From NCBI GenBank assembly GCA_051294905.1, contig CM119372.1:21950001-22014000 (forward strand): 64,000 nucleotides of DNA. Reading direction: 5' to 3'. The position numbers were made by a program, and so were the translations under genes. This document shows, one piece after another, positions 13,601-56,165 of the stretch. Below the pieces are notes generated by a model that saw only the letters and a program-made list of their open reading frames with translations, was not told the origin of the DNA and searched no databases. This DNA is from Botryllus schlosseri. Taxonomy: Eukaryota. Numbering within the stretch: the first letter of the stretch is position 1; each line of letters begins with the position of its first letter.

Positions 13601-13720
13601 CTAGCGACAGAGGCCTGGGTAAAAATAGATCTTCTTGCGGAGGGTGTGGAGTACTTCACTTATTTGCACCGCTCTTGTTCCCTTTTCTTTGCCAGACTTA
13701 TTCGAGACGCCGTTATTCAC
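13601..13720 (-). CDS. Caspase last coding exon 17 (VNNGVS...VQISEVLHTLRKKIYFYPGLCR*)
   Basis: VN..VS, Q....TLRKKxYFxP C-terminal motif; ttttctag acceptor; TAG at 13603-13601. Confidence 0.93.
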   Translation of the reverse strand: MNNGVSNKSGKEKGTRAVQISEVLHTLRKKIYFYPGLCR

Positions 13721-16700
13721 CTAGAAAATTCAAACATGGTTGATCAATCACATGATCAGTCAGAATAGCCTTAACAAACTCAAACAAGCATTGAAATCCA
13801 TTCATGATTGACGATTACAGTCTATGATATTTCGGACTAGTGCTAGAGCAGGCATGCTTCAATTCCAGGCAGTTAAATGTAAGTCTCTACCCGTGGACCA
13901 TCAATTTTTTCTAAACAAGTCCAAGTTTCTTTATGACTGAGAAATGATTCGTCTATTGCCAACCATAATCTATATGACAAACAAATTCGGATTGGTATTG
14001 CGATGACCTACAATGTGACGATAACCGACGAGCCTTTGAAGCCATGCTAGCTGGGCATGCCATGTATCTAGATTCGCAGCTTGAAAGACATCAATGAAAA
14101 CTCAGTAAAATTAGCCTATGAAGAGCGCATAGCGATTTGAGTACACGCATCCGAATCAATGATCAATTTTGATCATTCGAGTTGAGTAGCGAGAGCCGAT
14201 CTTTCCAAGTACCAAAACTATCCACTCCTTATTGCTCAATGTTCATGAACAAAAATCGTAGTTTTAGATGCTTTATCGCCTCGATACGCCTGAAACCTCG
14301 ATACGAGGAAGCATATCAATCAATAACGGTCAAAAGGCTTCCAACGTTCATGATGACGACATTTCTGTACAGAAGTGACAGACCTTCGGTATTGGGAATA
14401 TGAAATAACAAATATAAATATGTGCAACTGGCATTATTCAGTTCGCTGTTGCTTAGAAAATACCTATTTGGTCGCTGTCAAGTCCCTCTTCCTGTTTTTA
14501 TACTTAATTAGAAGCTTCATAACTCGACTTGGAATCGAATCACTCGGGTAGCCTGATAAATTCTGCCCAGCCCTGGCGACAATGCTCTATACTCCTTTAA
14601 TTTTACCACACACGAGTCACAGTCCTGTGCTGTTGGTAGCACTACAGAAAGAGTCTAATCCAAACAATCGCAGCAAACAGTGACATGAAACTAGAACGAG
14701 TAATGATATTTAACTCAAGAAGATATAGTCACTCTTACCTCGGTCAGCATGCTCAAGAGATCGTTGTCTCTGGTGTTTTCTTTCAGGACACAGACAAGTG
14801 CGGATACAAACCACGAGCCCGTGGCAGTGTCACGATAAGCTTTATTGCCTGAATATAAGAAAATTACTGCGTCTGACCAACACCATACCGATTTCATAGC
14901 ATGGATGAAACGAGTAAGAATGTAACAAGTACCTTTGCACAGAGAGCACAGGGTCTGTGCAAAATGATGCACCCGGCAATTAAAAAAATAACCAACACTG
15001 GAAATGATATTTTGCTGGCCTTACACTATCAGGCTGCGCACTTGGAACATCAAGAATTAGGCATTGGAGCTTGCTAACCGCACACCACATTGGCTCGTAA
15101 ACTGAGCTGAAGTACACCCTCAGGATCCTAGATCATTCCAATCATGTGTAATTTATTCATTTTCAAGGAGTGAATATCAGCAGGTGGTAGACGCAGGGCT
15201 GTGGAATCGGTAAATTTTACCACCTACTCCGGCTCCGACTCCACACACTTTCAATATACCAACTCCGACTCCTGAGTCTTTAAACGTACCTACTCCGACT
15301 CCTGGGTCTTTAAACATACCGACTCCGACTCCAGCATTATTACAATTTACTTCGAAAATTATATGCCACATTGTCGGTTGAATGACTATCATACAACCAT
15401 TAAACATATGCCAACATATGATTAACGGTGGCATGCTAAATTGTTTCATTGTGGCACAGCTCGAATTATCCACCATGCAATTAACATGAAAGAAAGATTT
15501 GCTAAATATCCTTCCTTTTTCAAGTTTTTATAACATGGACTCTCCAATATCCTGAAATGTATGAATCATTCAAATATGGCAGATATCCAATCCTGTGTGA
15601 TAAAAATGTAGATAAAAAATCCAAGTGTAGCTCTTGTGTCTGAGTCAGCAACTAATCAAGAGATTGAACCTACTAATTTTGACATTGCACACTATACTGA
15701 TTCCAAGCACACACACTCTTACTACTAATAGACATTGGTCATAAATGGAATTTAGTTAAGTAGGCCTAGTCAAAGACCATAAGCCTGTGTCTAGTCTACA
15801 TGTACTTAATCAAGTAGGCTATTCAAGGATTGGGACTTGCAGTCTTTCTTAATCATTTGTTCGACCCAAACAGCTACACTACAAATATTTTTAATTTTGT
15901 CAAGTGGGAAGCATCGTTTGGTCAAATTTACATCATTTTTACAATTTTACAAAACCAGCCGATGCATTTGCTCTGTCACAGTTTCATGGTATAATTCCGA
16001 AAATTGCATCAATTTTTAATGCATCGCGAAAACGCATATTTCGATTTTCTTCCCCTGTGCAACTGAGTTGTAATTTGCAAGCAATGTCTAATTTTATCTA
16101 TATCAGGGGCGGGCAACATTTTTGGCCAAGGGACACACGAGATTTACAAACCATTGCGCGGGCAACTGGAATGTTGATAACCTTTTTTTAGTCGTCCGAT
16201 AGGAGCGAACCGAATTAGGTAACATTGCAAACAAGACTTCTAAAACTCTAAAATTGATAACAATATGTCATGCAACTATGCAGCGCGCAATCAGGCTGTG
16301 GTCGCACAAAGCGTGAAATTTTTTTGCAATATAATGATTGAATTATATCAATAAATATGTTGCTAACATACATTTGGGTCGCATCTGTATACCAATGGGC
16401 TCAGTTGGCAAGGATAGGATTATTCGACGTTTAGACATAGCAAAATCGACGGTATCAGTGAACATTTCTCATTTTGTGATCATTTTGTGCAAATGTTTTG
16501 TCGACGATATCGCTGCGAGTGCACAAGCGAAGCCGCATGTTGGACGACACATTATCTCGTAATTGCGAATATAGTTAGACTCAATTCTGTGAATAACATG
16601 TATTTATAATTTTCAGAAGGGGGCTCAAATACTGAATGCAAGAAATCTAGTGCAATGAATCATGCGAAGTACTGAGAAAAATTTCGAGTCAAATAAATCT

Positions 16701-19700
16701 GCTATGAAATATTCTACTTTATGGTCATATAGAAAGATCTGGGATAAATGTGGCTGGCCCCTGGATACGTCAATGCGTCAGAACTGTTGTTTTAGTCATC
16801 ATCAAATTTCGTGGTCATGCTAATCAAATTTTGGTTGGCCTTGCAATTGTAGGCCTACCTGATGTCATAAATAATTTCGAGAATTGCCTCGCAGGCCAAA
16901 CGTAACCTTCTCGTGTGCTAAATTTGGCCTGCGATCCATGGGCTGGCCGCACCTGATCTGTATGGTTATTAATAACAGTGATTGGTGGTACATAAAAATT
17001 CTATTGAAAATTCTTTGAAAGCAAATGTTTTCATGCTAGAGAAGTCGGAGTCGAAGTCAGGGTCATTCTCACAAACTCAGACTCCGACTCCAGTCAGTAT
17101 TTTCCCCACGACTCCGACTCCAGCTATTATAGTTTTCACGACTCCGACTCCATCAAGCGAAAATTACCCAGACTCCGACTCCACAGCCCTGGGTAGACGT
17201 ATACTGAGGCCTAACATCTATTGCCATCGCCTGGTCTGCACCCTAGTATCGTTTATCCTTTGCGTCACATAATTAATGAAGCTATGTTGAAGTCACTTGT
17301 GACGTACCTAACATAGCAAATCGTATGAAAGTACATTCCTTCGTTTTCTAGTGATTCGGTAAAGTCAAGTGATATCAAATATGGGCGTTTAAGTGATGAT
17401 GTGCCTTATGCCATATTCATACTTTTGGCTTGAATTTACTGGTTTTAATGCCATGGCAAAAATCCACTTGAACTACTAGCTGAGCTCTGCATAGAACAGG
17501 GGTCGGGAGATGGCTTGCTAACCACACATGGCTATTTTGATGGTGGCGTATGGCTGCCAGAGAATAGGAGTTGGTTAATTACCTAGTAGTCCGATTATCA
17601 CAATTCAAAATCCACTGTAATCTCCTGTATGATTTTTCAAGAGAAACATACATACGAAGCGGTGTTTATTTACACAGTACAGTATACTATGCATTTTCGT
17701 TTTGACGTGCTAATGACTTGACGGCCTGTGTGAGCCTTACAGTCAAAGCCCGAGATTCGGGACGCGCTAAAATGGTGTGATGACCAGCTTAGTGTTTAGT
17801 CAATGAACAATGGCTTTATTCAAAGTTTCTTATCGACAATAGCAGTAAGAGTTGATCACAAAGTATGCACTTCATAGGGGGAGATGGGCTCATACCTATC
17901 GACTGTTAATTCAGAAGGTTCCAGGGTGATTTTGTGAAATTTGATATATTTATTATATCATTAGGTCTGACATCTGCATCTGAGCTGACATATGTAATAG
18001 TGATTTACATTGCACCGTTAGGAGATAGTTGACAATTGTTAAGATTTAGCCGACACTGGCTTGTCCAACTTTATTTGATGATCATCAGTACTCTCGATAT
18101 TCCGGTTTAACTCGTTAGTCGTTTCACGAAAACAAGAATCTAATTTCAAACTGCAGGTGAATAAGCTGGGATAGTGATAGCCAGGTCGCGACATATACTG
18201 TTCGCACCGCAACACCACCAAGTCCAGCTAGATAGCTTGATTAGTGCAGGTAAGCATTACGCTTTGACTCAGAAAAATATGGTGCTCACAACAAACCTTT
18301 AATTATGACAGCAGTTAACTGGAATTGGTAAATGGCTACTGGAACATTACAATTGAAAATATAGGCCCACCATGGTTCGTTTAATGAGAAAGGTTCTAGA
18401 CCCCTGGCCTAGAATCATGTGGGTACGATAATAGTTCATGCGTGCATGAGAAATCACCTGCCAGTGTTGCGTAGACAGAAATACAGTCCATCAGGCGGGT
18501 TTCCCGCTCGGTGGTATCAGTCGGAAAAGTATTAGCATCAGCCTCTATGATACCATCACCTTCTGTAAAATCATATGTGCAATTAGATCGGTGGTAGATC
18601 ATATCACAGATAACCTAACCTTTCTGGAATACACAACAACAAAATTCTTATTAAGGACAGAGGACAGAGGACAGAGGACTGAATCGTTAACTTCAAAATT
18701 TTACGGAGTGTTGAAGGAGAGATAGAATAGAGAGAAAGGGATAAAAACTTAAAAGACTTACTAAGTGTTTATTCGGTATGCTGACCAATATCAGATATCA
18801 GATATCAGAATAATCAAGACCAATAACGACATAGATAAATAGCTATAAGGGTGAATAGATTTCATAATCTTATTATTTCCCATTTTTCAATTTGCTGGAA
18901 AATGTGTACCATAAATGTCAATACTTTTCATCTACTCCCATTAGGATTGTCCAAAATTTGGAAAACCTTGAAAATGCGCCGGTTTAGTGTCTTATTCTAC
19001 AGATTATTACTGATAAAAAACAACAATTGGCCAAAAAGAAGCTCACAGGAAAGTCATTAAGATTTCGGGCTAAGCATTTGAAAGTTGCTGACAAAGAATG
19101 GGCGTGCCACTGACCATAGAACAGTGAGAAGACTAGTAATCACGAAACCACGGCTCTTGATTGGTTAATCGGTTATGCTGTTTGGCCCATTGTTGTTTTT
19201 ATCAAAAATAATCGATAGAATAAGACACTAAAACGGAGCATTTTTGAGATTTTACAAATTTTGGACTACCGTAACTCCCACATATAGATGAATAAGTCAA
19301 ATGTCTATATATTTTTGACATCAACAGAAATAAAATGATTATAAGATTAGAATAGAACATAAATTTACATACCTATTGTAGTTTGTTCGGCGTCTAAGAA
19401 AAAGAATCAAACATAAGCAAATGAAGGCATCATAAAGGATTTGTAGTCAACAGAATTAAGTAAGGCATAGGGGCAAACGATTTTGTTTAAATTTCTTCCG
19501 CCAATATTGAAGAAAATGAAGTAGCGGATCGTAACAGATGTAATGGCAAAATATGTAATAAAAGCACGAATAATTTTTGTCATTACCATATTATAACCTA
19601 ATTAGTAATTACTTCACTAGCAATTCAGATTTTTTTCTGTGCTTCATGGACACTTGTTCCTGATGTATAAACTACATCAGTAAACATTTACAATATGAAA

Positions 19701-43700: not shown

Positions 43701-46700
43701 AAACGGGCATAAGCGTCATTAATACAGCCCTTTTTGAGTAACATTTTTATTAAATTTTTACGAAAAATTGTGATGTGATGAGGGAATTCTGATGGCCAAT
43801 TCGGAATCAGCACCGTCAAATTAGGTAAACTCAATTATTCGTTCTAAAAAAAGAAAAAGTTAAAAAATGTCGACTAGTGTAACAGGTAATGGCTAGATTG
43901 CGAAACGGTAGTTTCAAACGTTATGGTTGGGCATATTTACTGTGATGAAATATTTGATATGGGCGACAATACGGTGTGAGCGGAACCAAGCAATCCGGTA
44001 CCTAACTTATATTCACTGATACTTTTGTGAAAACATCTTTGTCACTCCATAACTAATGTGCGCGAAGCGCAACAAAATTTCTGGGCCTCACTTGAATTTT
44101 ATGAATATGAAATGTTGGTACTCTGTGAAAACAGCCCCGAAATTCTTCAGGCTATCTTTTGTTTTGGGGTATTAAACTACTTCTACTTGACAAACTGAAA
44201 ATAGCAAAAAGTAAGTGAGTAGATCACAAAATATTACAAAGTAAGTAGAAGTAGAGAAAATCAGATCTACTTGAGTGCTTCTAAAAAGTAGAAGTACTTC
44301 GTTACTGACCACCTCTGCTTCCTAGCAAGAAATTAAAACACTTGGCTTACTTTGCCGCTTTTAATACGTCTCATCAAAAGATCTCTGCTGAATTCCTTGA
44401 CCTCAAAGTCTTCATCCGGCCAGAATTCCCTTCTGTTCGTATCCTGCCAGTCCATGTCAACCACAGCAACCGAGTTTCCTGAATATTTACTGTACGTCAA
44501 ATGGAACACAATAAAGATCGCCCACACCTACCATCGAGAACGAAAGACTCGTTAAACTTTTTCATCCGCAAGTTTTTCAAATCAAGACCATTGTGTCCGT
44601 TTTTTCCAGGGCCCACTAAAATCCATGACAAGCAGTTACAAGAGATTGATTGATTTTTCCTACACACTAAAAGAACTATCACGAAATTAAGTGACTGGAT
44701 CATTCAACGATTTGTATTACAAATGCAGATCCTAACAGCAAATAGCAATAACTGTGTGCTGTTATCATGACGGTTGTTGAACAATAACCAAAACTCATCA
44801 AGGCGCAACAAAGAGTAAATCCTGTTTACGTATGGTGGAGATTGTTGTGTTTTCGTTATTATACGTGACAGGTCCGTTTCCCATTACGTTGGCTTGGACA
44901 AAGTTGCCTCCAGAGATGACCACATGTTTTCCATCAGTATATGGAGTTTTCCCGACGTTGGTCTGAACCACATCTGAAAAAAGAAAACAGTATAGTAACA
45001 TCACCCCTTCTGTTTGAGATTCTTGCCAATCAAGGAATAGTTGACACACAAATCCTTAGTCCATTATCTCGTTACTCAAATCCCTTTAGGGGATCTGTTT
45101 ACTACAACTCAAAATCCTGACCAACTTTATGGACTCAAAAAATATACTATCTTTTGAGCATCGATGAAATGTCAAGTCTATACTATGTCACTGACGTAAA
45201 GTTTATGTTGCATACACTTATATCGAAATATTTCGAAAGGGCAATTTTTAACAGGCACATAACCAGTTGGAGGCGAAGGTAATGCACAACTTTCAAAGGA
45301 AGCTAATGGAACGCACTTCATTTAACATTCAGAATCATGTTTGGATCTATGGTTTGGTTGAAACATCATGAGCCAGCTTCAATGCCGTCCATTGGAAATG
45401 CATCCGAGGTCACCATATTACATAGTAAATCATTGCCAATAACCGACAATTTTTCATAAGACAAAGTCGAGTAATACAGCTCCGATAAAGTGAGGAGATA
45501 GAGGAATTTCAATTAAGTCATATGTAGTGGTCCAGAGGTAATTTTCCCAGACTTTCCCTAATTCATAGTATATGCAACAGAGAACTGCCAAACGTCAAGT
45601 CACCAAACAGAAAAGAATGACATTTCTTACTGCCTCCACTGGCTCTCACGTTTGCCCCACTATTCGATATTCTGTAAGGTAAGGCAAAGCAAATTATGAC
45701 CTTGTTATAATGCAAACCACAATGTCAGCGACTTACGTAGTTGAGTCGCATTGCTCAGGAGTCCAGCTGTAAAATGATCGATGTGAAAGGACTACAGTAG
45801 TAAATTAATGAATAATATCATAAACCGTATGCCAATTGGAATCTGATTAGCAAAATAATGAAGAACTGCAAATAGTTCAAAATTTTTTGAGTAATCTCAA
45901 CAACTCAGGTAGGGTACTGTAACTTTCATAATTTGGTAACTTGGGAACGATATGATCATTGAATGACATAATTTATGTTTTCAAGTCTCTAGCTAGACCA
46001 GCAATACTCATTACTCAAATTAAACAAGGTTTCAAGACTTTCAACCATATGTCAAGTGGACAGAAGCAGAAGCTTGGTGCCAAAACATCAGCTGTTCCAT
46101 ACTGAGCAACTGCCCTCGACACTCAATTTTGACCTCAGATCAGAATAATTCTAGTCTCTGATACTGAGCTGGATAAAGATATTAACACACTGGCGAACTG
46201 ATATCAAAATTTTCATATATGGACTGTGTGAGCACTTTGACTGCATGCGTCAGTGTAATACAGTAGCAGGGATATGTGAGTAACACCTACTGACTACGCT
46301 GGCTATGCATATTTTATGGTAATTCAAAGCATACCCTTTATTCTATAAATATTCTAATAGGCACAAATAAAGTTGTTGTCACAAATAACAAGTATAATGT
46401 GCATTCCGATACTTGGCACAGTAGATCTGCTAAGAGAATGTGTGACTACGTTAAAAATAAAACAAAAGTTGATTGATCTAATTTGGGAATTGAAAAACGG
46501 GGGAGAATTGACAAATTACCATGTTAACGATTTTATCAATGCAATGAAAATAACTTACTTAGTCGATCCGCGATTTGAACTGGGTCCCTCAGGAACTGCA
46601 CTGCAATACGAACAGGATGAAAGGACACAGACATGACCAGAGAAAATCCTGAGAAGGCGTTTCGAAAATGGAGATGTACAGACAGCAGCATTCAATACCA

Positions 46701-49700
46701 CCGGTCAACACATATTTTTAGGCAGACAAAGTAAGAGTGGTTTTGGGGGCTCCGAAGGGCACTGATTCCGAATATGACCTTAGTTTTTCCAAATTGGCTC
46801 TTATTCTGGAGAAAACCCATGGCGCTATTTTGACCAAAATCTCCTATTTTCGCTGTAATGGCTCTGAGATAGTAAATCGGCTCAGTCGTACTATCAAGTT
46901 TAGAAATTCGATCTACCTGTTATTTTACACACAGAAGACTATTTTGAATCAAATACAGCGAAAGCAGTATATTCAGGGGTATTACATTTATCATATTCAT
47001 AGACTTTCACGGATATTATGTACATAAATAAACTCCAGTCACGTATATAATTATTTACCTAGATACGGTACTCAAATAACGTGGCATTAATTCAAGCAGT
47101 TTTACGTCAACCCCCTATTGTAAATTTGAAATAATCAGTCGGAATATCACATTAATCATTTCTTTTAAAGCACAATTGTTTTTTGTATGATTTTCGCCTG
47201 TAAGCAATTAAGTGCAGTTTCACGTAAGGTTCCAGCAATGGTCTGCCATGATATGTTCATCTCATCTGCCATAATATCTTTTTTGTTGTTGTTTTGATGT
47301 GAACCTTTCCCCTTGCTAATCAACAAGAAGATCATCAGTAAATATATCAAGATGACTGAACAGGAAGTGAACTTTTATGGTCATGTTTGTTCCAAGTTTT
47401 CTATAGGCAGATACGAATTTTCGGACCAACTGTTGGTAGTTGGGTGCTTTGTGATCATCTAAAAAGTTTTATTTACCTACATCTTAGGATAAATTCCATG
47501 AAGTGAGCTCCTTCCTAATATGAAATTGGAATCTTTTATCCGTATCCCAAATTTGAAATCTATCAAAGGTACCAGATTTAAGCTTCTCGTTTGATAGGGA
47601 TACCATAGGTATACGCACTTTGTTGACTCAGCGGAAAATTATCTATTTACAAGTCAAAAGAAATGAGTATTGAGCATATGAGTACTGTAGTTAAGCTTTT
47701 CAAGGACAAATTTTATAGCTTTATACTCCTCTTAAATCTCGGTAGAATTACCAATTGATACACGAGAATATGTCTTTCCATTGTGCAAAAGTACAAATTT
47801 TAGGCTTGACAAACTGCTTTTTCGACAGGTCATGTTAGTATTGATAGAATGACTGATAATGACATGAGGGTTCTTCATAGTCAATTTAGTCAGTTTATTT
47901 ATGCACAGTATACAATTAGAAAAAAAAACACAATTTTAATCCTATTAAGTGAAATATTCAACGGTAGATACAGTAATTTTAGGGGTAGAAATATCTCATG
48001 AACAAGGGTCAATCTGGCAAAACTAATGTGATATTCTTAATCAGCAACCTCAAAAACTCCTGAAACAGCTCTCAGATGTTCTGCCCAAAAAAAATTTTTC
48101 ATTTTGTTGACCAGTGTAATTGTTCGACTTGAATCTGCCCATGCTTTATTATATAATTTTCTAGATCATGATGGCGTTTGATGAGATGAGCAAGTTATAA
48201 TTTTGAAAATGATTATACTTCTGTCATACGGTAATCAAAATTAGATGGTAAGTCCTAGTAATTAGGATGGCTCTCAGATGAAATTGTAACTTTGATTTAT
48301 CCTGAGTAGCATCAGTGTTCTTCTCCTGCATGCTATTGGGAGTGACTGGTGTCGGACTTATTTTAACCTTTGCGTAGTGTTATAAAAAACTTCAAAGAAT
48401 GATAGAATTATAGAGCAAACCCAGTTGTCGGCGGAGCGTGATTTCCAACAAAGCCTCCCGCATCACTGGCAATGCTACCAGTATCCGTTTCCATTTCCTG
48501 CAAAAACATGCAGATAAAGCAGGTTACCAAATTGTATTGAATCTATGGAGTCACATCAGTCAGTCGAACTGTTTTCATAAAAATATATTTTTTAGATGAC
48601 AGAAATATATCCCTGACCAAGATAAAGATAAAGACAAGTATCGTACTATGAAGTACTGCAACGTTATGAAAATAGCAACATTGAATTAGTCATTGTTTTA
48701 GATGACTCAATTACATGCAGTGACGAAGTTTCACAAACACACACAACATTATCACACTTAACAATACAAGGCTTGTGTGAGAAATATGTACTTTGAATAG
48801 AAATAATAAATTGAACAAGCATGAAATCGAGCATCGGTCGTTTGCAGTTGCTATATACTCATCCAAACCAGTGCTTCCTCAATATTTTTGCAGTGCACCC
48901 TGATACACAGTGGCGCAACGGGAAGGCTTTGCAGGTCATAACTAGGGCTGGGCAAAATCGAGTACCTGAGTGATTCGATTCTGAATCACGTAATATGCTT
49001 CGAGTCGAGTCGAGTAATCGAGCATCACTCCTTATGACGTCATAACAGAATGTAATACGTCAAAGATCAAATATGTACCGTTTATGCTACAACAAAGAAT
49101 ATAATACCCGTTATCCATCTCATGAAAAATACTTTGCTGTTTTTTCGACCATATCGATTTCATTCCACTTGGTGGCAATATTGTGGGATAATCATGACTT
49201 CGGAAATGTGCTACGTCCAGGAACCTTCGTAGCTTTGTAATAATGTTTCGTATGCTACGATACCGCCAATCAAGGTTTCAAGGCTTCAACAGTGAAAATT
49301 CGTATCGAAACTATAATTCTCGTTGATAAATTAACTGTCAGTAGCGAACAGCGTATAATTTCAGTACTCGAAAAAATCGTATTTTACTACTCGACTCGAA
49401 TCAATAAATTAATACTCGATTCAGATTCGAGTACTTGAATCATTGTGCCCAGCCCTAGTCATAACCCCTCGCATTCCATGATTAAAACCCCATCCTTTTG
49501 AAATGACTATTTTATCTCACATCTTTCTCAGCTCATTTGCAACTCCTAGCACGCTGTCATGTTTCGACAAAACTACAGTGGCTTTTTTCTCGTGCTTGCT
49601 CTTGTGTTTGCTAAGAGCACCAAAACTGTGTCCTACAATGTTTCTCTGCGATGTGATTGCACTTCAAACCGAACTTATCACGCTTGACATGCAATATGTC

Positions 49701-52700
49701 AATGTGTCGCGATATGTCAGTCTCCTCGCTGCTCCTGAGCCGAGGAACCATTTCTCCTCGAATAAATTATTCTATTATAATGGTGAATCCGTCACATTGC
49801 AAATTCCAAGGTTGATTTTAGGTGGTTCCGAGGGTCATGAGCAGACCAAAATTGATGTTCTTGTAATTAGTAATGCAATGTTCCAAATTGATTCCCAGTT
49901 AATGAAATTTGAGCTCAGACAGCCAGCCAACTAATGCAATGAATCGCATTTATCAGTCAAATGGCGAAAATGTCAATTGCCCTGAGCGCAGCCCGATGTA
50001 TGATTTGCTTGTGTCTACACCTGTGTGGGACACTATGATCTCATCGTTCTTCCGAGAGCACTCAATTAGTCGCACGAAATTTGTATTTTGCTTCTTCTTA
50101 CTTCATACTTGTGACGCGTATCAGTGCAGCCACTTAGTGAGACTCGACATTGCACAGCGACTTCTGATTTTGTTAGATTTCCTAACATAGTATGCAAAAT
50201 GGTAGCTTCCACCGGCTTTACATATCATAAGTTAAAGTTTGACAACACGATGAAGCTGATCTAATCCTTGTAATATCTTGAAAAACTTGCAACCCCCTTT
50301 TTTTCTTTAAAATCCCATACTTTTTCTCGGCTGGGATAACCATGCTATCTCTCTCTACAGATCCTAGTCATCCTTTTCCTCACCCTTACTTGAGACTGTG
50401 AAATACTAGAGGTGGAAGGATAGCAATTTACCGTTTCATTGCAATACGTTTCGTTGCAATACGTTTTCTTTCTGTGCTGTGATGTTCATTTCCAACCTGT
50501 AAGGCTGTTGGAAAAGTATTTCATCCTTTGATATGCTATAATAAACACAGGTGCTATGCTATAATAACTATAGGTGGACATTAGGTAGTCAGCGAATGGT
50601 GCTTTCTCAACCAATCAATGAAATTGATATCATTGACTGATGTAAAAAAATCTAGGAAGCGTACAGGGTCCATCTTGATTTCATATATTTATTGTATCAT
50701 AACTTGATGCTGCTACTGCTGCATAATTGTTAATGGGGTAAAACCCGTTTCACACTCTGCTCAATCAACATAGCAACACTCAGTTACGCCGAATACATTG
50801 TCCGGTCAGGCCTAGACCGTTAAGGCGTAAGTTTATATTCCCTTTCAAGTCCTCGTCAAAATTGTTGGCAAAGCGACGGAAGATATTGATTTTATGGGAT
50901 TATAATATATCATTTCATTCCTCCAGTTGATACATTTGGTGACGCTTAAAAAGTCAGTATGTACTTCAGCATTGCGGCCAGATGTGGCCCGAGTCGTTGC
51001 TAGGTATCGTGTACATTAATATATATCACTTCACTGAAATGTAGGGTTGCATTATGACATCATGTGACATCATGAGGTTCATGTTCGCGTTCACACAGAA
51101 CCTTTTTAAAAAGGTTCGCGTTCACACGAACCCGAACCTTTCAGAGGTTCACACCATCCCTAGAGGACATACACGTTTGTTTAGGTACATGCCTGTCCAT
51201 GGACAACAAGACAAATAGCATTTGCCCATTGAACAAAACCTATTGTGTAGACAATGTACTGGATAGCACCCACTTCCCCGATCGGCCAGTCCATATTTAC
51301 CGCTCTTTCCTGGTAGCTAACACTCCTAGGGTCACCCATTTTGAGAATCTGTGATTCAAACAAAACACTTGGAAATTTTTATGAGGTGTAATGTGATCTA
51401 CCGCAACGTTTGCGGGAACAAACAAATATTAAGATGAAAGCTGCTACCTAGTGCACCATGCACCAAGCACGTTAAATTGCAGTTCTACATGTAGGATCTC
51501 ACCATGTTTCTTTTGATGATGGATACAGCCTTCTCGTAAGGGTCAGATGCCATCGCGATGCTGAAGGCATACTGTAAATGCATCATTATAAAATAAATAG
51601 AAATTTTGTTTTGTCTTTAAATTAGGCCTTTATATGTCAGGCAATAAGACATCTTGTGAACAAGATAATTCCGCATTGCAATCACTCCAACTATCTCAGG
51701 CTAGATTTAGGGTACAAGGTAAGGTAATTAAAAGGTTTGTCCCATGTTAGCAATGCAGTCACCTCCTGCCCGTCTGCAAGATCATAGAAACAAGTACCAG
51801 CAAAACTACGATGGCATCATTGAAATGTGGGACAGAACAGTGCTCATTTCAGTTTGAAAGACAAGAGGTGTTGTCAATATAAATCTGAATGTTGATAAAG
51901 TTTTACTCTATAGTGTATAAAAGGCCTTCAACTGATCAACAATGTACCAATTCAGACTAGATTCAACATCAAGAATGCACCACACATGTGTCTTGAATAC
52001 AATGAATGCAATAGCTTTTTTCTGCAAAAACAGTCATCTTTAGTAAGGTTTATAGCTTCAGCTGCAACACACACAAAATCCTAATCTCACTGTAGACTAG
52101 GGTTACCATATTTCTGCAACCTGAATTCCGGACACTCTTTAGCGCCCACTAGTGAATTTTAAAATGAGTTATGACATCACACTATCCAAGCTTTGCTCAT
52201 AGACCAGAGGTGGCCACGATCCGGTTCAGGAGTATGTGGCCGCGTGTTGTGTAACCGGGACCGAAAGCACATGTTTTCCACCTCTTTCCACGCAAATAAA
52301 CAATGATTTTGAGCCCACACTATAGGGTAATCAATGCAACTTCTGGGCGGGGGGTGCTTGCTATATGAATCTGGTTTCTATATGCATCTGGTCGTTAAAT
52401 TATTTGAATGAAGCCTGTCAATAATGTTGGTTGTTCCATATATTACTTTTTAAATACTACTCTCCGCCCACATGATCAGAGTTATGATGGTGGAGAATGA
52501 TGAGTTCGAAAATACTTGGATCGTAATTGCACATCTTTACGTCCTGTTCATGTCCTACCGATAAGACTGTTTATCAACCTTATGCTGGTGCGCGCCACGG
52601 ATATTTATAAACACCCCACATCCAGTGGTTTCCAACCTTTTATGGTCGCGACTCCATCTCCAATTTGAAAATGTTCCGAGGCCCAGATCAAAATTTGACG

Positions 52701-55700
52701 AGCCGAGCCGATTACTAAAAGAAGTCAGCACCTTTGCCGAAACTTACTCACGGGCTATTTTGGAAGCTGATTACGTTCAACATATTCGCAAACCCCAGAA
52801 TAAAGGTTAACGACCCCTGTTTGGAACCACTATCTTTGAATAAAGCATTTAAACGGCCTTAACGATCTCTAGGAATACACCGTTCTATAATTGCGATTAC
52901 AATTAGGCTTATTCCAGTAAATGAAGGTTGTTTTTATTTATATTTTATTGCAGTTTTTGCGAGGGTGGTGGTCTCCATATTAGAATTAATAAATGTTATA
53001 GCAAATCAAGCGCAGCGCGAAGAAAAATATCATGCATCAGGATAAATATTCCCAAAAAATATTGTTTTTATGGTGATTTACGAAAAAATTATGAGCCTAC
53101 GTCAAGTCTTCAAAATTCCGGACATTTGGCATATTTTAGAAATTCCTCCCGGACGCTTGTTTGAACAGTGAAATTCCGGACATGTCCGGGAAATTCCTGA
53201 CATATGGCAACCCTGCTGTAGACTCAATCTCAAAACTCAAATCAAATTTGATTACTTTTACACCCGAACACTTTAGTATAGCCAAGAGAAAGATGTTACT
53301 GAATCAATCTCTGTACTTCTGAACAACTATCGGTACTCACCTTGTTGAGCAACGGATGAATTTGGTTCAACAAATACGGATTGTTGCAAATTCCACTCAA
53401 AGAAGCCTTATCGGTCGATGCGAGTTCTTGAGGCTTTCGAATATCGGCTGCAATGTAGCAACAGGCTAGCTTATTCTGACAGCCTATGAAATTGATGATC
53501 TATAAATATAAGCCTACATTGGAGGTCAGCAACCTTCAAGTAGGCTTTGCCTCTTCAGACTACTAAGCTGGAACATTTACTTCAGCAGTTTCCGAAGTCA
53601 AACTACTTATGTTGTTACATATTAGATTTTGTCATGTAGGAAGTATTGCTTGTATAATTTTGCTTGACCCTTTTATGAATGAGTTTGTTACCAAACGGGT
53701 ACCAATGAGCTCTGAAATGCGATTGAGTGTCTCCAAAGTGGGTTCATTCAAAGCCGCTTTCATACTGATTTGTAAAATGTAATTATTTTTATAGCGCTGG
53801 AACCACCCAAAAATCTACTACTGTTTCGCGTTGTGGGGCCATAACCGTTTTTGAGTCCCACATTCCCTGCTTATGAGAGGCCTTGATTTCTGACATTGAT
53901 GGTTGAAATGATGCATGTCAACCGAAGACGAGGCGAATAGAAGTGTGCACACTGCACATAAATGAACTATGTTACAATGTATCAACATTATGACAGTATT
54001 TTTTCCTTTACAATTCTAATGTACCGGTATGTCCCATTTTCACTGCATAATAATAAGAGTTAGTTAATGTCTAGTGCCGATTTTAATAAATGCTGAATGC
54101 ACCAATTAGGAATCGGGGTCAATATTCCGAGCCAAGTATTGCCACTAGTCATTCTGCATTAGTGATGAACGTACGCATTTTGAAACGTGCAAATCATCTC
54201 TCACCGACGATTGTCCAGAAAGTTCTTCCATGCAGTGCTCATCCCTATATCTACATGTCTTGAAAATCGCTACATCCAGATTATAATCAAGTGGAAATGT
54301 ACTGCATTAGTTATACTTGTACTGGAGTGTTGCGAATGGCTACTTTGTCCAACTCTGTCAATAAGGTAGTTCGGATCGACTATCACGATCCACAATATAG
54401 GTATATATATTGTGCATATAGTAATGGAGCTTCCATAGCAATGATAGCATCATTATGAAATGCAGGATGCTGATAAAATAGTACTGTATATTTGAAATGC
54501 AGGTCATTCTCAATGAACACATAATAGTCAATAGTCATGAGAGGGAATCGTTAAAGGCTGGCTGAACGAGATAGCCTAACGGTAGATTGTAGTATATTAA
54601 TGGTAACCAGTGAACTCGGCCCATGACGAACTCGGCCTATTGAACTCGGCCCATGACGAACTCGGCCCATGACGAACTCGGCCTATGACCAACTCGACGA
54701 ACTCGGCCTATGACGAACTCGGCCTATGACCAACTCGGCCCATGGTGAATTTGTTAAAAAAAATTATTATAAATGTCGTGAATTGTATTAATTCTGTGGA
54801 GACAATGGTAAATTGGTGGTGATGGACATGTCGTATCAATGTTATTACCACTGGGGGCAGTATCGTTAAGGAATAGGGCCTAGACAGAAAAAAAACTCGC
54901 ACCAACTCAACTATTAATGTGAATTATATTACGATAATTATAATATTATCAAGTGATTAGGAGGTTAGGATTAGGGTTATGATTAGAGTTAGGTTAGGGT
55001 TAGGATTAGGGTTAGCTTAGGGTTAGGATTAGGGTAAGCTTAGGGTTATGATTAGGGTTAGGTTAGGGTTAGGGTTATGATTAGAGTTAGGTTAGGGTTA
55101 GGATTAGGGTTAGGTTAGGGTTAGGATTAGGGTTAGCTTATGGTTAGGATTAGGGTTAGCTTAGGGTTATGATTAGGGTTAGGGTTATGATTAGAGTTAG
55201 GTTAGGGTTAGGATTCGGGTTAGCTTAGGATTAGGTTAGGGTTATGATTAGGGTTAGGTTAGGGTTAGGGTTAGGATTAGAGTTAGGTTAGGGTTAGGAT
55301 TAGGGTTAGGTTAGGGTTATGATTAGGGTTATGATTAGGGTTAGGTTAGGATTAGGGTTAGGATTAGGGTTAGGGTTAGGATTAGGGTTAGGTTAGGGTT
55401 AGGTTAGGATTAGGGTTAGGTTAGGATTAGGGTTAGGTTTAGGTTAGGGTTAGGTTAGGATTAGGGTTAGGTTAGGGTTAGGGACAGACAGACCTGACTT
55501 TAGATTCATACGACTTGCCCACGTGTTATGACGGCGGCAAGTAAAACTTCCAATTCCGAGAACTGCAATACTGCCCTCCCCCCAGCATTCGTACGACATG
55601 TCCATCACTCCCAAATTAACCATTTTCTCCGACAAATAATACAATTTACGACGTTTATAATCATTAATACTAAGAAATTCCCCACGGGCCGAGTTGGTCA

Positions 55701-55907
55701 TAGGCCGAGTTCGTCATGGGCCGAGTTCAATAGGCCGAGTTCGTCATGGGCCGAGTTCACTGGCAACCATATTAATTACAGCATAAAAATTGATTTTCAT
55801 GTTAACGGCAAGTTACCATTCCATAACGCCTGCATATGCTGTGGACGTAAGCCAAGTTGGTCACCAAACTTGAGGAATTTTTCATCAGTGTTATCGTCAG
55901 TCGGCAT
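13601..55907 (-). CDS. Caspase (peptidase C14A) with long non-CARD/DED prodomain; 17 coding exons, 504 aa
   Basis: Manually spliced join(55907-55817,53447-53341,51571-51503,51348-51301,48497-48421,46600-46559,45671-45631,44973-44830,44478-44351,36281-36208,32323-32221,28814-28721,28495-28355,19393-19373,18562-18458,14848-14739,13720-13601) = 1515 nt, open frame, all introns GT-AG and phase-compatible. Caspase motifs RALIINN, DRAGAVMD, IGSHG, KPKIFFLQFCRQ, YAT-G-KAYRD-GSWFV, TLRKKIYFYP. The catalytic exons are secure; the N-terminal exons rest on splice sites and phase only. Confidence 0.85.
14230..14297 (-). pseudogene. Degenerate paralogous copy of caspase exon 10
   Basis: 17-bp identity ctcgatacgcctgaaac with the exon 10 acceptor; with one frameshift it reads AYRGDKASKT/RFLFMNIEQ* against AYRVQNNGANRALIINNHV. 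Confidence 0.45.
14739..14848 (-). CDS. Caspase coding exon 16 (NKAYRDTATGSWFVSALVCVLKENTRDNDLLSMLTE)
   Basis: AYRD...GSWFV p10 motif (Arg341-equivalent); attcag and GAG|gtaaga. Confidence 0.95.
15194..17191. mobile_element. hAT-like non-autonomous element with ACTCCG subterminal repeats
   Basis: TIR CAGGGCTGTGGA; TSD ggtagacg. Confidence 0.9.
16104..16955. mobile_element. Charlie-like element nested in 15194-17191
   Basis: Degenerate TIR CAGGGGCGGGCAAC; TSD atct(a/g)tat. Confidence 0.75.
18458..18562 (-). CDS. Caspase coding exon 15 (GDGIIEADANTFPTDTTERETRLMDCISVYATLAG), linker and p10 start
   Basis: IEAD/A putative processing site; D-x-x-x-x-YAT-x-x-G p10 motif; ttttacag and G|gtgatt. 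Confidence 0.9.
18942..19273. mobile_element. MITE family Q
   Basis: TIR TAGGATTGTCCAAAATTT; TSD actccca(t/c); relative at 31317-31811. Confidence 0.75.
19373..19393 (-). CDS. Caspase 21-nt micro-exon 14 (NAEQTTIE), inter-subunit linker
   Basis: Strong acceptor ttctttttcttag and donor AG|gtatgt; phase 1-1, in frame. Confidence 0.6.
   Translation of the reverse strand, partial: TPNKLQ
21230..21683. mobile_element. Nested MITE G with GACTCGA/GACTTGA subterminal repeats
   Basis: TIR CAGGGTTGTAAT; TSD gtaagagg. Confidence 0.9.
21739..24498. mobile_element. Nested element H, related to J
   Basis: TIR CATAGGCGCTGAACTC; TSD attgggag. Confidence 0.9.
22019..23107. mobile_element. Element I nested in H, with CTGGGTTTT subterminal repeats
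   Basis: TIR CAGAGATGCCACT; TSD aacgcaac. Confidence 0.9.
24577..27195 (+). mobile_element. Element J copy 2 (right end deleted)
   Basis: Starts CATAGGCGCCGACTT; collinear with 1981-4375. Confidence 0.85.
25191..25449. mobile_element. MITE K nested in J
   Basis: Degenerate TIR CATGGGTGGCCAACC / GGTTGCCGACCCCTG; TSD ggctagaa; remnant at about 2550-2630. Confidence 0.8.
28355..28495 (-). CDS. Caspase coding exon 13 (DGRANDTFVGVHG...CPFLEDKPKIFFLQFCRQ), catalytic Cys
   Basis: CPxLxxKPKIFFxQxCR signature; ctttgcag and A|gtaagt. Confidence 0.95.
28721..28814 (-). CDS. Caspase coding exon 12 (EMKTILKDF...IVIYIGSHGER), catalytic His
   Basis: SHG catalytic motif; ttatag and G|gtagaa. Confidence 0.93.
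29061..30781. mobile_element. Charlie-like non-autonomous element
   Basis: TIR CAGGGGTGGGCAA / TTGCCCAGGCCTG; GCGGGCCG subterminal motifs; TSD gattactg. Confidence 0.88.
30973..31257 (+). mobile_element. MITE family E copy
   Basis: TIR TAGGGTTACCATA; TSD a(c/t)ataaag. Confidence 0.85.
31317..31811. mobile_element. MITE family Q copy
   Basis: TIR TAGGGTTGTCCAAAATTTT; similar to 18942-19273. Confidence 0.7.
31838..32174. mobile_element. Charlie-like MITE carrying family A internal sequence
   Basis: TIR CAGCAGTTCTCAACC / GGTTGACAACCACTG; TSD tgctagac; about 31915-32095 is the reverse complement of the family A core. Confidence 0.85.
32221..32323 (-). CDS. Caspase coding exon 11 (RMNDRAGAVMDSKNMKKLLAKLQFQVESHENKTAA)
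   Basis: RxGxxxD motif (Arg179-equivalent) and L-F-V...N-T pattern; ctccag and |gtgagt. Confidence 0.93.
32747..33500 (+). mobile_element. Internally deleted hAT element with transposase dimerisation-domain remnant
   Basis: TIR TAGGGC(T/G)ATTTTTT; TSD ctaattag; about 33140-33190 reads SVLPA/TTAAVERSFSS with a frameshift, matching the hAT C-terminal LPxTTAxxERSFS motif. Confidence 0.78.
34062..34681. mobile_element. Near-perfect 620-bp palindromic (fold-back) MITE
   Basis: Arms are complementary almost to the centre (about 34372); TIR TAGGGCTGTTCAAAAATAAC; TSD atgttcac. Confidence 0.93.
36208..36281 (-). CDS. Caspase coding exon 10 (AYRVQNNGANRALIINNHVFSPSS), p20 first strand
   Basis: Y-x-x ... 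RALIINNxxF caspase motif; ttgtttcag and AG|gtatgt. Confidence 0.92.
36402..37638. mobile_element. Charlie-like element hosting a palindromic MITE
   Basis: TIR CAGTGGTTCTCAACC; TSD gtc(g/t)atat, with the right copy displaced by the 37643-39186 insertion. Confidence 0.75.
36803..37474. mobile_element. Palindromic (fold-back) MITE with arms of about 310 bp
   Basis: GGGGTCTTCAAAAATGAC ends; inverted arms with internal AAATTTGGTTCAATTCCAACCA repeats. Confidence 0.9.
37643..39186. mobile_element. Charlie-like non-autonomous element
   Basis: TIR CAGAGGTCTCAAAC; TSD cactagtc. Confidence 0.88.
39366..40190 (+). mobile_element. Tc1/mariner-pogo-like MITE L
   Basis: TIR CCGTAATTTTCC flanked by TA; partial inverted copy at 41506-42020. 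Confidence 0.82.
41506..42020 (-). mobile_element. MITE L partial inverted copy
   Basis: Reverse complement of about 39680-40190. Confidence 0.8.
42330..42870 (-). mobile_element. Degenerate LINE 3' end related to 57243-57630
   Basis: Shares GACTTGGAGTAGTCT...CCTTGGCC.AGGCGATGTAAA with the LINE 3'UTR. Confidence 0.55.
44351..44478 (-). CDS. Caspase coding exon 9 (RNSVAVVDMDWQD...RRIKSGK), end of prodomain
   Basis: Acceptor atattcag, donor |gtaagc; phase 1 to 0; joins AYRV at the start of p20. Confidence 0.85.
44830..44973 (-). CDS. Caspase coding exon 8 (VVQTNVGKTPYTDGKHVVISGGNFVQANVMGNGPVTYNNENTTISTI)
   Basis: Strong acceptor tttcttttttcag, donor C|gtaaac; 144 nt, phase 1-1; lies within ORF 44798..45049. 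Confidence 0.8.
45631..45671 (-). CDS. Caspase coding exon 7 (ISNSGANVRASGGN)
   Basis: Acceptor ccttacag, donor |gtaaga; 41 nt, phase 2 to 1, bridging exons 6 and 8 exactly. Confidence 0.72.
46559..46600 (-). CDS. Caspase coding exon 6 (AVPEGPSSNRGSTK)
   Basis: Acceptor tattgcag, donor |gtaagt; 42 nt, phase 2-2. Confidence 0.7.
46698..48116. mobile_element. Probable TA-flanked (Tc1-like) non-autonomous element
   Basis: Ends CAC(C/T)GGTCAACA / TGTTGACCAGTG-TA; a similar terminus lies at about 43790-43880. Confidence 0.5.
48421..48497 (-). CDS. Caspase coding exon 5 (EMETDTGSIASDAGGFVGNHAPPTTG)
   Basis: Strong acceptor tttttgcag; weaker donor GG|gtttgc whose phase 2 matches exon 6. Confidence 0.65.
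48943..49457 (-). mobile_element. MITE family A, inverted copy
   Basis: TIR TAGGGCTGGGCA; TSD gtcataac. Confidence 0.92.
50582..51162 (+). mobile_element. MITE family B, 5'-truncated
   Basis: Matches the right part of 7099-8084 and ends in TTCACACCATCCCTA. Confidence 0.85.
51301..51348 (-). CDS. Caspase coding exon 4 (ILKMGDPRSVSYQERA)
   Basis: Acceptor aatcacag, donor GCG|gtaaat; 48 nt, phase 0-0. Confidence 0.55.
51503..51571 (-). CDS. Caspase coding exon 3 (YAFSIAMASDPYEKAVSIIKRNM)
   Basis: Acceptor tttacag, donor ATG|gtgaga; 69 nt, phase 0-0. Confidence 0.7.
52098..53215 (+). mobile_element. hAT-like element F with TCCGGACA subterminal motifs
   Basis: TIR TAGGGTTACCATAT / ATATGGCAACCCTG; TSD ctgtagac; hosts a small CAGTGGTTTCCAAC MITE at about 52623-52831. 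Confidence 0.88.
53341..53447 (-). CDS. Caspase coding exon 2 (ADIRKPQELASTDKASLSGICNNPYLLNQIHPLLNK)
   Basis: Acceptor acattgcag, strong donor AAG|gtgagt; only one frame is open; phase 1 to 0. Confidence 0.7.
54602..55768. mobile_element. Long-TIR non-autonomous DNA element with central telomere-like array
   Basis: Ends GGT(A/T)(A/G)CCAGTGAACTCGGCCCATGACG; tandem GAACTCGGCCYATGAC subterminal repeats; inverted arms of about 250 bp; TSD atattaat. Confidence 0.9.
54955..55483 (+). repeat. Degenerate telomere-like array (TTAGGG/TTAGG/TTAGGA/TTATGA mix)
   Basis: About 530 bp of mixed 5- and 6-mers, G-rich on the + strand. Confidence 0.95.
55817..55907 (-). CDS. Caspase coding exon 1 (MPTDDNTDEKFLKFGDQLGLRPQHMQALWN)
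   Basis: ATG at 55907 with an in-frame upstream TAG; acceptor tgcag near 55928; donor G|gtaact; phase 1 matches exon 2. Confidence 0.65.
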
Positions 55908-56165
55908 TGCTGTTGTCTACTGAGAATCTGCATATTGAATATGAAAAGAAGATTAATTGACCAATAGAGACTTTACTTTCATAACTCATTACACAAAAGC
56001 TCAACCTGAATGTCATAAAACACTTTCAATGCCCAGAAACAGCTCATACAGTGCAGTATTTGTCTTAGTAACTGCAGGATTTACTGGTCATTCCTGATTT
56101 TACGAACATTTTCCAAAAAATTTGGGGGGCCATTGCCCCTTTCGCCCCTCCCTGGCTACGCCAAT

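Follow-up and report, generated by a model that had tools for sequence, protein, structure and literature searches.

How is a caspase clustered for activation if its long prodomain contains no domain that Pfam recognises? The question is raised by a gene in Botryllus schlosseri, within a stretch of 64,000 nucleotides (assembly GCA_051294905.1, contig CM119372.1, positions 21,950,001 to 22,014,000 of the forward strand) that is called the window below and in whose numbering positions are given. Initiator caspases are defined by the recruitment mode of their prodomains, and every characterised one is, to our knowledge, recruited via death-fold domains. A first-pass annotation of the window, made from the sequence alone, had instead seen in this gene a SAM-like domain and a tandem amyloid-like motif ahead of the protease, and had proposed activation on a SAM and/or amyloid scaffold. 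Our analysis leads to a different reading, to which we assign a probability of roughly 0.6, namely that the gene encodes a single-copy, transcribed, initiator-type and caspase-2-like protease with an orphan, lineage-restricted prodomain of about 271 amino acids that would cluster the zymogens for activation. The gene is real, transcribed and single-copy, and its transcripts are spliced from exon 2 to exon 11.

The window, AT-rich DNA of an animal with a GC fraction of 0.37-0.44, carries the caspase gene on its minus strand from an ATG at 55907 to a TAG ending at 13601. The model that we rebuilt from RNA joints, and from homology in the 3' half, has 17 exons, all with GT..AG introns, and a single open frame of 519 amino acids. 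Its end points and strand are exactly those annotated before, as is the count of 17 exons, but the earlier length of 504 amino acids did not stand; the 15 additional residues fit an exon 10 whose 3' end lies elsewhere. The exons are as follows.

55817..55907, minus strand: exon 1, aa 1-30 plus 1 nt; ATG, open frame, donor AATG/GTAACT and a phase that fits exon 2; read from the sequence only
53341..53447, minus strand: exon 2, aa 31-66; 3' end from joint 51571>53341, acceptor ttgcag by sequence
51503..51571, minus strand: exon 3, aa 67-89, closing the N-terminal part of mixed composition; joints 51571>53341 and 48496>51502 (cut shifted by +1)
48421..48497, minus strand: exon 4, where the T/G/S-rich stretch begins; joints 48496>51502 and 46600>48421
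46559..46600, minus strand: exon 5 (42 nt); joints 46600>48421 and 45766>46559
45737..45766, minus strand: exon 6 (30 nt); joints 45766>46559 and 45671>45737
45631..45671, minus strand: exon 7, ending in the SGG of repeat 1 plus base 1 of the next codon (Asn); joints 45671>45737 and 44973>45631
44830..44973, minus strand: exon 8, with the rest of repeat 1, repeat 2 and the GPVTYNN..NT.IST block; joint 44973>45631, donor GT at 44829
44532..44615, minus strand: exon 9; joints 44615>44855 and 44477>44531 (cut shifted by +1)
44351..44478, minus strand: exon 10; aligned RNA on 44397-44478 only, 44351-44396 presumed
36208..36281, minus strand: exon 11, the first caspase exon (..RALIINN..); joint at 36281, aligned with the start of the caspase domain of a paralogue
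32221..32323, minus strand: exon 12, with an Arg aligned to R.G..D of paralogue L002; PF00656 20.6 bits, GT-AG
28721..28814, minus strand: exon 13, with the catalytic His (SHG); placed by sequence, tblastn and blastp
28355..28495, minus strand: exon 14, with the catalytic Cys in QFCRQ; PF00656 25.2 bits, donor AAA/GTAAGT
18458..18562, minus strand: exon 15, with the intersubunit linker IEAD/A and the start of p10; homology to L002 and L004, GT-AG, phase 1 in and out
14739..14848, minus strand: exon 16 (..AYRD..GSWF..); PF00656 29.6 bits, homology
13601..13720, minus strand: exon 17, C-terminus and TAG; homology

Exon 2 lacks an ATG, and its frame runs open upstream, again without an ATG, so that some upstream coding exon is required; we infer exon 1 from its ATG, donor and phase, and exons 12-17 are predicted from homology and GT..AG splice sites. 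A chain produced by a gene finder based on codon usage and splice sites was dropped, as it joined wrong exons and missed exons 8 and 13.

Splicing was followed in RNA mapped to positions 36100-56099, a span picked to take in the first caspase exon and all upstream exons, from one contig run (X1) and three raw-read runs (X5, X7 and X9), with 15 of the 182 joints listed. One X1 contig, of depth 186, connects exon 2 to exon 11 (36281) through nine joints (51571>53341, 48496>51502, 46600>48421, 45766>46559, 45671>45737, 44973>45631, 44615>44855, 44477>44531 and 36281>44397), seven of which read CT..AC on the plus strand, i.e., GT..AG on the minus strand. Eight of the nine joints recur in raw reads of X5 (2-13 reads each), one in X7 and none in X9. 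The X5 reads number 4 for 51571>53341, 13 for 45766>46559, 10 each for 45671>45737 and 44973>45631, and 2 for 36281>44397, while 48496>51502 is supported by the X1 contig, 6 X5 reads and 2 X7 reads, and 44477>44531 by the X1 contig only. Joint 44615>44855 reads CT..TC merely for the reason that exon 8 ends in 25 divergent letters that stayed unaligned; the true exon 8 donor is the GT at 44829, and the 25 letters that the X1 contig holds between the two sides match reference positions 44854-44830 at 19 of 25. Short X1 contigs of depth 3-5 span pieces of the introns, so that X1 behaves like RNA with a slight unspliced background. By virtue of the nine joints from exon 2 to exon 11, the exon bearing the repeats discussed below is part of the caspase transcript. 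The earlier exon chain is thereby borne out for exons 2-11, which are joined in one X1 contig, whereas exon 1 and exons 12-17 rest on sequence and homology; within the mapped span, upstream exons left unspliced to the caspase, an outcome that would have told against the proposed gene, were not seen. As a separate observation, the X1 transcripts, with the same joint in two X5 reads, differ from the reference at 6 of the last 25 nucleotides of exon 8, and the differences in 44830-44854 change the last eight residues of that exon, which indicates a strongly divergent haplotype in coding sequence.

The catalytic part was recognised in a profile search of the 495-Mb assembly with PF00656 (cut-off 21.4 bits), which gave 86 matches, many in intronless frames, including on the minus strand of the window 14718-14852 (29.6 bits), 28059-28493 (25.2 bits) and, below the cut-off, 32224-32340 (20.6 bits). 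By blastp, the model aligns with an intronless CARD-caspase paralogue (L002) at 133 bits and 33% identity over 303 columns (model aa 230-517), and it aligns similarly with a DD-caspase (L004), exon 15 being covered by both. The His of SHG in exon 13 and the Cys of exon 14, which form the catalytic dyad, align with both paralogues; the pair of Arg residues that bind the P1 Asp (..NDRAG.. and ..AYRD..) aligns to R.G..D and ..MRN.. of L002, and GSWF in p10 aligns to GSWY. The intersubunit linker is short and contains IEAD/A. The active-site pentapeptide reads QFCRQ versus the usual QACRG, with Gln and Cys kept, Ala replaced by Phe and the final Gly by Gln; since the donor after QFCRQ is unambiguous, the change from Gly to Gln is real in the reference. 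A string VIFLYS upstream of exon 16, considered as the caspase DFLxxYS block, turned out to be the translated pyrimidine tract of the acceptor, and the true block is supplied by exon 15.

When exon 14 was searched against PDB sequences, the best match was caspase-2 (E 6.4e-5), with insect caspase-1 and caspase-8 next, and among the 150 chains at E<=1 the best 60 were all caspases or c-FLIP. A search of the protein database with the same exon gave no match, so that this collection does not contain the protein. Within the own genome, the nearest matches to exon 14 are only 39-44% identical, which points to a divergent, single-copy, initiator-like caspase. Judged by its residues, the catalytic domain looks caspase-2-like and apparently competent.

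With caspase-2 and the CARD initiator caspases, the gene shares a long prodomain, a catalytic domain that aligns end to end with L002, caspase-2 as the best solved relative of exon 14, and the His, Cys and Arg residues, GSWF and a C-terminal ..YFYPG; it differs from them in having no detectable CARD and in QFCRQ instead of QACRG. From the paralogous caspases of its own genome it is set apart by a shorter intersubunit linker and by its 17 exons, where many paralogues are intronless. A comparable arrangement is known from amphioxus, for which the accessible part of Xu et al. (2011; PMC3196919) describes caspase-2-like enzymes with swapped death-fold prodomains. Both cases combine a caspase-2-like domain with a non-CARD prodomain in a large family (86 PF00656 matches here), but the published amphioxus enzymes swap in death-folds (DED+DD), whereas no known domain was found here.

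What, then, does the prodomain consist of? Its roughly 271 amino acids ahead of p20 are mixed and rich in Leu, Ala, Asp and Lys over aa 1-89, Thr/Gly/Ser-rich over aa 90-147, Gly/Asn/Val/Thr-rich over aa 148-200, and mixed and charged over aa 201-271, so that the layout of an N-terminal part, a low-complexity linker and two pseudo-repeats described in the first-pass annotation holds. Pfam found no family at E<=10 in the eight prodomain exon peptides, and in these peptides there is accordingly no CARD, DED, DD or PYD at the level of sequence, as had been supposed. Exons 2, 8 and 10 match only themselves in the 495-Mb genome. The N-terminal 92-100 aa were further compared with profiles from the own genome, SAM_1 (24 sequences), Death (10) and CARD (5), against 200 shuffled controls. 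These domain tests are weak, as the exons are short, the profiles small and the comparison confined to sequence, and DED and PYD were covered via Pfam alone. Within these limits, the N-terminus was not among the reported matches of the SAM profile, where shuffles reach 6.6 bits, nor among those of the CARD profile, where they reach 4.3 bits, and it ranked 81 of 185 with the Death profile (-0.9 bits). Its scores with the CARD and Death profiles fall within or below the shuffles, which agrees, as far as so weak a test goes, with the earlier view that it is no ordinary death-fold domain. Mean pairwise z values were -0.23 for SAM (24 domains), 0.01 for CARD and 0.83 for Death, and the single best pairwise z, 2.6, was found among the 24 SAM domains. 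Given the weakness of these tests, neither the SAM nor the amyloid proposal is refuted by them. PDB sequences gave no match to exons 2 and 3, and the ESM Atlas no usable match to exons 8 and 2. A match of exon 1 to designed ankyrin-repeat proteins (E 0.004) was rejected, since its single stretches reach at most 2.7 bits and the total is the sum of nine repeats. As far as sequence comparison can tell, the prodomain appears to be lineage-restricted and without a known domain.

By eye, the N-terminus contains about six short Pro-capped helices over some 85 residues, and this size and helix count, which serve as a lead only, would fit a death-fold better than the five-helix SAM. The likeness to SAM polymers is limited to size and helical look, with an 'LGL..' stretch that recalls, again by eye, the turn between SAM helices 1 and 2; on the other side, Pfam found no SAM in exons 1-3, and the own-genome SAM_1 profile ranks shuffles above the N-terminus.

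We hypothesize that the prodomain would gather zymogens on some oligomeric partner, as is general for long-prodomain caspases, and that the catalytic domains would then dimerise and cleave themselves in the short linker, for which IEAD/A is the obvious site. Our guess is that the clustering module would be the N-terminal 90 aa, which, with about six Pro-capped helices of death-fold size, may fold into a cryptic bundle of CARD type and not into a SAM domain. We infer this mechanism as a whole.

The repeats of the prodomain bear on whether it could also assemble in another way. Repeat 1 (SGGNVVQTNV, aa 150-159) spans the RNA-backed junction of exons 7 and 8, its exon 8 part lying at 44954-44973, and repeat 2 (SGGNFVQANV, aa 173-182) lies within exon 8 (44885-44914), 23 residues further on. 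Their alignment score of 50, against 31 +/- 5.5 for shuffles, was reached by 2 of 200 shuffles of the whole prodomain and by none of 200 composition-matched shuffles of aa 90-200; the two SGGNxVQxNV pseudo-repeats noticed in the first pass are thus a real, yet short, pair. A search with exon 8, run with no word index over 1.84 billion representative proteins, gave three matches, of which one, P0002, is a 112-aa fragment 55% identical to exon 8 (26/47 columns), whereas a search of the protein database with the exon 8 frame gave none. When the 85-aa open frame around exon 8 is aligned with P0002, the exon itself accounts for most of the identities and its translated flanks for few. The fragment keeps GGNFVQ, QT.VGK and GPVTYNN..NT.IST; the spacer between the repeats varies but its length is kept, and the 'NV' of the motif is not kept (SSI, THV). 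A profile search with exon 8 and P0002 together found P0002 alone, which leaves a single relative. The other two matches, P0001 (2032 aa) and P0003 (1037 aa), were rejected as bacterial-looking tandem-repeat proteins with many low-complexity matches. Judging by these sequences, the repeats would be a short, beta-prone, conserved tandem element within an otherwise disordered T/G/S/N-rich linker.

The repeats might instead belong to a small beta-rich domain that folds over about aa 140-270, or they might have arisen by recent tandem duplication within a flexible linker and play no part in assembly. AlphaFold2 (AF2) gives four short strands for exon 8, the composition of aa 201-271 is mixed and globular-like, and the significance of the repeats is modest at 2 of 200 shuffles. 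However, the AF2 model of exon 8 alone has a predicted local distance difference test (pLDDT) score of 50, a low confidence at which it says little, and conserved motif blocks beside a variable spacer speak against a neutral duplication. We regard this explanation as unlikely, albeit worth keeping in view.

Distinctly unlikely, in our judgement, is the explanation closest to the original proposal, in which the repeats stack as a two-coil beta-solenoid or form a RHIM/HET-s-like amyloid, alone or with an N-terminal SAM polymer, and templated fibril growth takes the place of the death-fold filament as the platform that clusters the caspase. The repeats are rich in Gly, Asn, Val and Gln and flanked by a T/G/S-rich stretch, their distance of 23 residues is a plausible length for a beta-solenoid coil, the conserved GGNFVQ, QT.VGK and GPVTYNN of P0002 surround a spacer of constant length, and no death-fold domain was detected in the prodomain. 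On the other hand, exon 8 matches neither RHIM (PF12721) nor HET-s_218-289 (PF11558) nor Ses_B in Pfam at E<=10, and a genome scan with the RHIM model (cut-off 20 bits) returned three sub-threshold matches, all outside the window and scoring 17.7 bits at best. The core tetrad of RHIM has the consensus I/V-Q-I/V/L/C-G, and it is absent from the repeats, whose cores V-Q-T-N and V-Q-A-N (T-Q-T-H and V-Q-S-S in P0002) continue after the Gln with T-N and A-N instead of a hydrophobic residue and Gly; the 'NV' is lost in P0002 as well. Among PDB sequences exon 8 had a single match, with E 9.8, and for the SAM part the absence from the reported SAM-profile matches and the mean z of -0.23 over 24 domains tell against a polymer.

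The same reading would predict a receptor or adaptor bearing the motif, and the first-pass annotation had suggested looking for one. In the genome, GN.VQ.NV matches twice versus seven times for the reversed control, and GGN[FV]VQ 14 times versus 14 for its control, and exon 8 searched as protein finds itself only, so that no second motif-bearing gene emerges beyond chance, although divergent partners would escape such a search. The only other GN.VQ.NV (L012, G000:C2:10485763-10485785) lies in the linker of the CDK-activating-kinase assembly factor MAT1 (PF25811, E 2e-18), and its 'SGNAVQINV' was rejected as a partner, being a chance match.

Comparison with characterised amyloids gives a similarly divided picture. 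Like the RHIM proteins (RIPK1/3, ZBP1, TRIF, insect cRHIM and those of Branchiostoma), the caspase has a short, Gln-centred, beta-prone motif in tandem in a disordered region, located in a cell-death protein where a death-fold domain would sit; unlike them, it shows no RHIM-model match, no tetrad and no second motif-bearing gene. With the prion-forming domain of HET-s it shares two imperfect repeats of about 21-23 residues in one chain beside a cell-death effector domain. However, there is no sequence similarity (no Pfam match), we found no NLR that could be a partner by carrying a matching motif, and the repeats abut here, whereas those of HET-s are separated by a 15-residue loop. The general idea that a RHIM may replace CARD-like domains is already in print, the accessible part of Kajava et al. 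(2014; PMC4262963) describing many Branchiostoma RHIM proteins, invertebrate RHIMs at the positions of CARD-like domains, and tandem RHIMs. In the part available of a 2026 review of signalling amyloids (PMC13506858), caspase-8 is named solely as a negative regulator, and the passages of text covered by our literature searches describe no caspase whose prodomain is of RHIM/amyloid or SAM type. Taken together, the geometry of the repeats is compatible with a two-coil beta-solenoid and their blocks are conserved, but positive evidence for amyloid did not emerge from these searches, and we treat amyloid as an unsupported and improbable possibility.

Returning to the initiator-type protease with an orphan prodomain that we prefer, several observations weigh against it. 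The joint between exons 1 and 2 is absent among the 15 of 182 joints listed, the X1 contig stops inside exon 11 (about 36216), and exons 12-17 fall outside the mapped span of 36100-56099; of the words of 28300-32400, X1 and X2 do contain 0.08 and 0.06, a share close to what exons 12-14 add up to in length, but we do not count this as evidence. Expression was seen in X1 and X5, with 2 reads in X7 and none in X9. The CARD, Death and SAM profiles all score the N-terminus at or below shuffles, the six-helix view of it was obtained by eye only, and the Gln that replaces the last Gly of QACxG could, to judge from the pentapeptide, lower activity. Finally, the RNA joint between exons 10 and 11, 36281>44397, ends CT..CC, so that the skipped part would begin with a non-canonical GG, and a direct join at 44397 shifts the frame, meets a stop 13 codons into exon 11 and yields a 268-aa product without the protease.

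Whether the gene chiefly makes a protease or a protein of the prodomain only is decided by the exon 10/11 junction. In the latter case, the chief message would have exon 10 cut at 44397 and run straight into exon 11, and the protease-less protein of 268 aa could be a decoy or regulator like the CARD-only proteins, or its message a target of nonsense-mediated decay. The sole RNA evidence at this junction (one X1 contig and two X5 reads) does put it at 44397>36281, and the 15 of 182 joints listed include none at 44351. However, an intron starting with GG is very rare, and an extension of exon 10 by 46 nt to a consensus GTAAGC donor at 44350 (AAA/GTAAGC) is stop-free, and its length (1 mod 3) is precisely what is needed to return to the caspase frame. 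The mapping does not give the letters between 44397 and 36281 in the RNA alignment; given that 25 divergent letters of this contig stayed unaligned where exon 8 ends, 46 unaligned letters of a similarly divergent allele are a fair explanation at exon 10. Moreover, the one well-supported single-nucleotide polymorphism (SNP) in exon 11 (36246; 186/186 in X1, 6/6 in X5) is synonymous if the caspase frame is read but not if the shifted frame is, and the caspase frame downstream is intact across seven exons. We therefore consider it probable that the junction is read in frame, the frame across it being presumed from these observations, and improbable that the chief message encodes the prodomain only. 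Least probable of all is the most specific form of the amyloid idea, in which an animal initiator caspase would bear a HET-s-like beta-solenoid motif with two rungs, from a sequence class not described before, and would be activated by templated amyloid growth and not on a death-fold filament.

Some further observations concern the surroundings of the gene and its family. The ten flanking open frames of the window contain no Pfam family. Within intron 1, a short-period repeat of about 530 nt (54961-55488), translating as PNPN.../LTLILT..., was masked as repeat in the read mapping. Other intron stretches of the caspase (36767-37433, 40102-41435, 48773-49439, 50774-51440 and 52108-53441) are covered to a very high depth by contigs and reads of all four runs and show many loose ends, e.g., at 48943, 49457 and 44317; they are expressed or multi-copy repeats within the caspase introns. 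Elsewhere in the genome, in at least nine places, a 257-aa Peptidase_C14 frame is preceded at a distance of 15.6-16 kb (21 kb in one case) by a Death-domain frame of 100-130 aa that is oriented alike (for example G000:C11:4507177-4523450, C13:24710226-24726479, C16:14429888-14446220, C2:30487392-30503638 and C3:8197890-8214157), which makes up a unit of 16 kb or more, present in many copies, that carries a Death-domain gene and a caspase-like gene and may be a large mobile element. The genome contains 111 Death-domain matches, many in near-identical frames of 94-104 aa that are paired in inverted orientation at a distance of about 10 kb (23 kb at most), such as G000:C4:20656892(+)/20667428(-), C5:25440527(-)/25450416(+) and C12:17220158(-)/17243607(+).

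Since the characterised initiators all use death-folds, this caspase with its orphan prodomain is a test case for an alternative activation platform, and the conserved tandem beta-motif sharpens it. If the N-terminus is a cryptic CARD, the protein would be nothing unusual within an expanded family of invertebrate caspases. If the repeats self-assemble, amyloid signalling would be tied directly to caspase activation in animals, and, should the amyloid reading prove true, this would be the first caspase directly nucleated by a functional amyloid, through a metazoan motif that is new and unrelated to RHIM in sequence.

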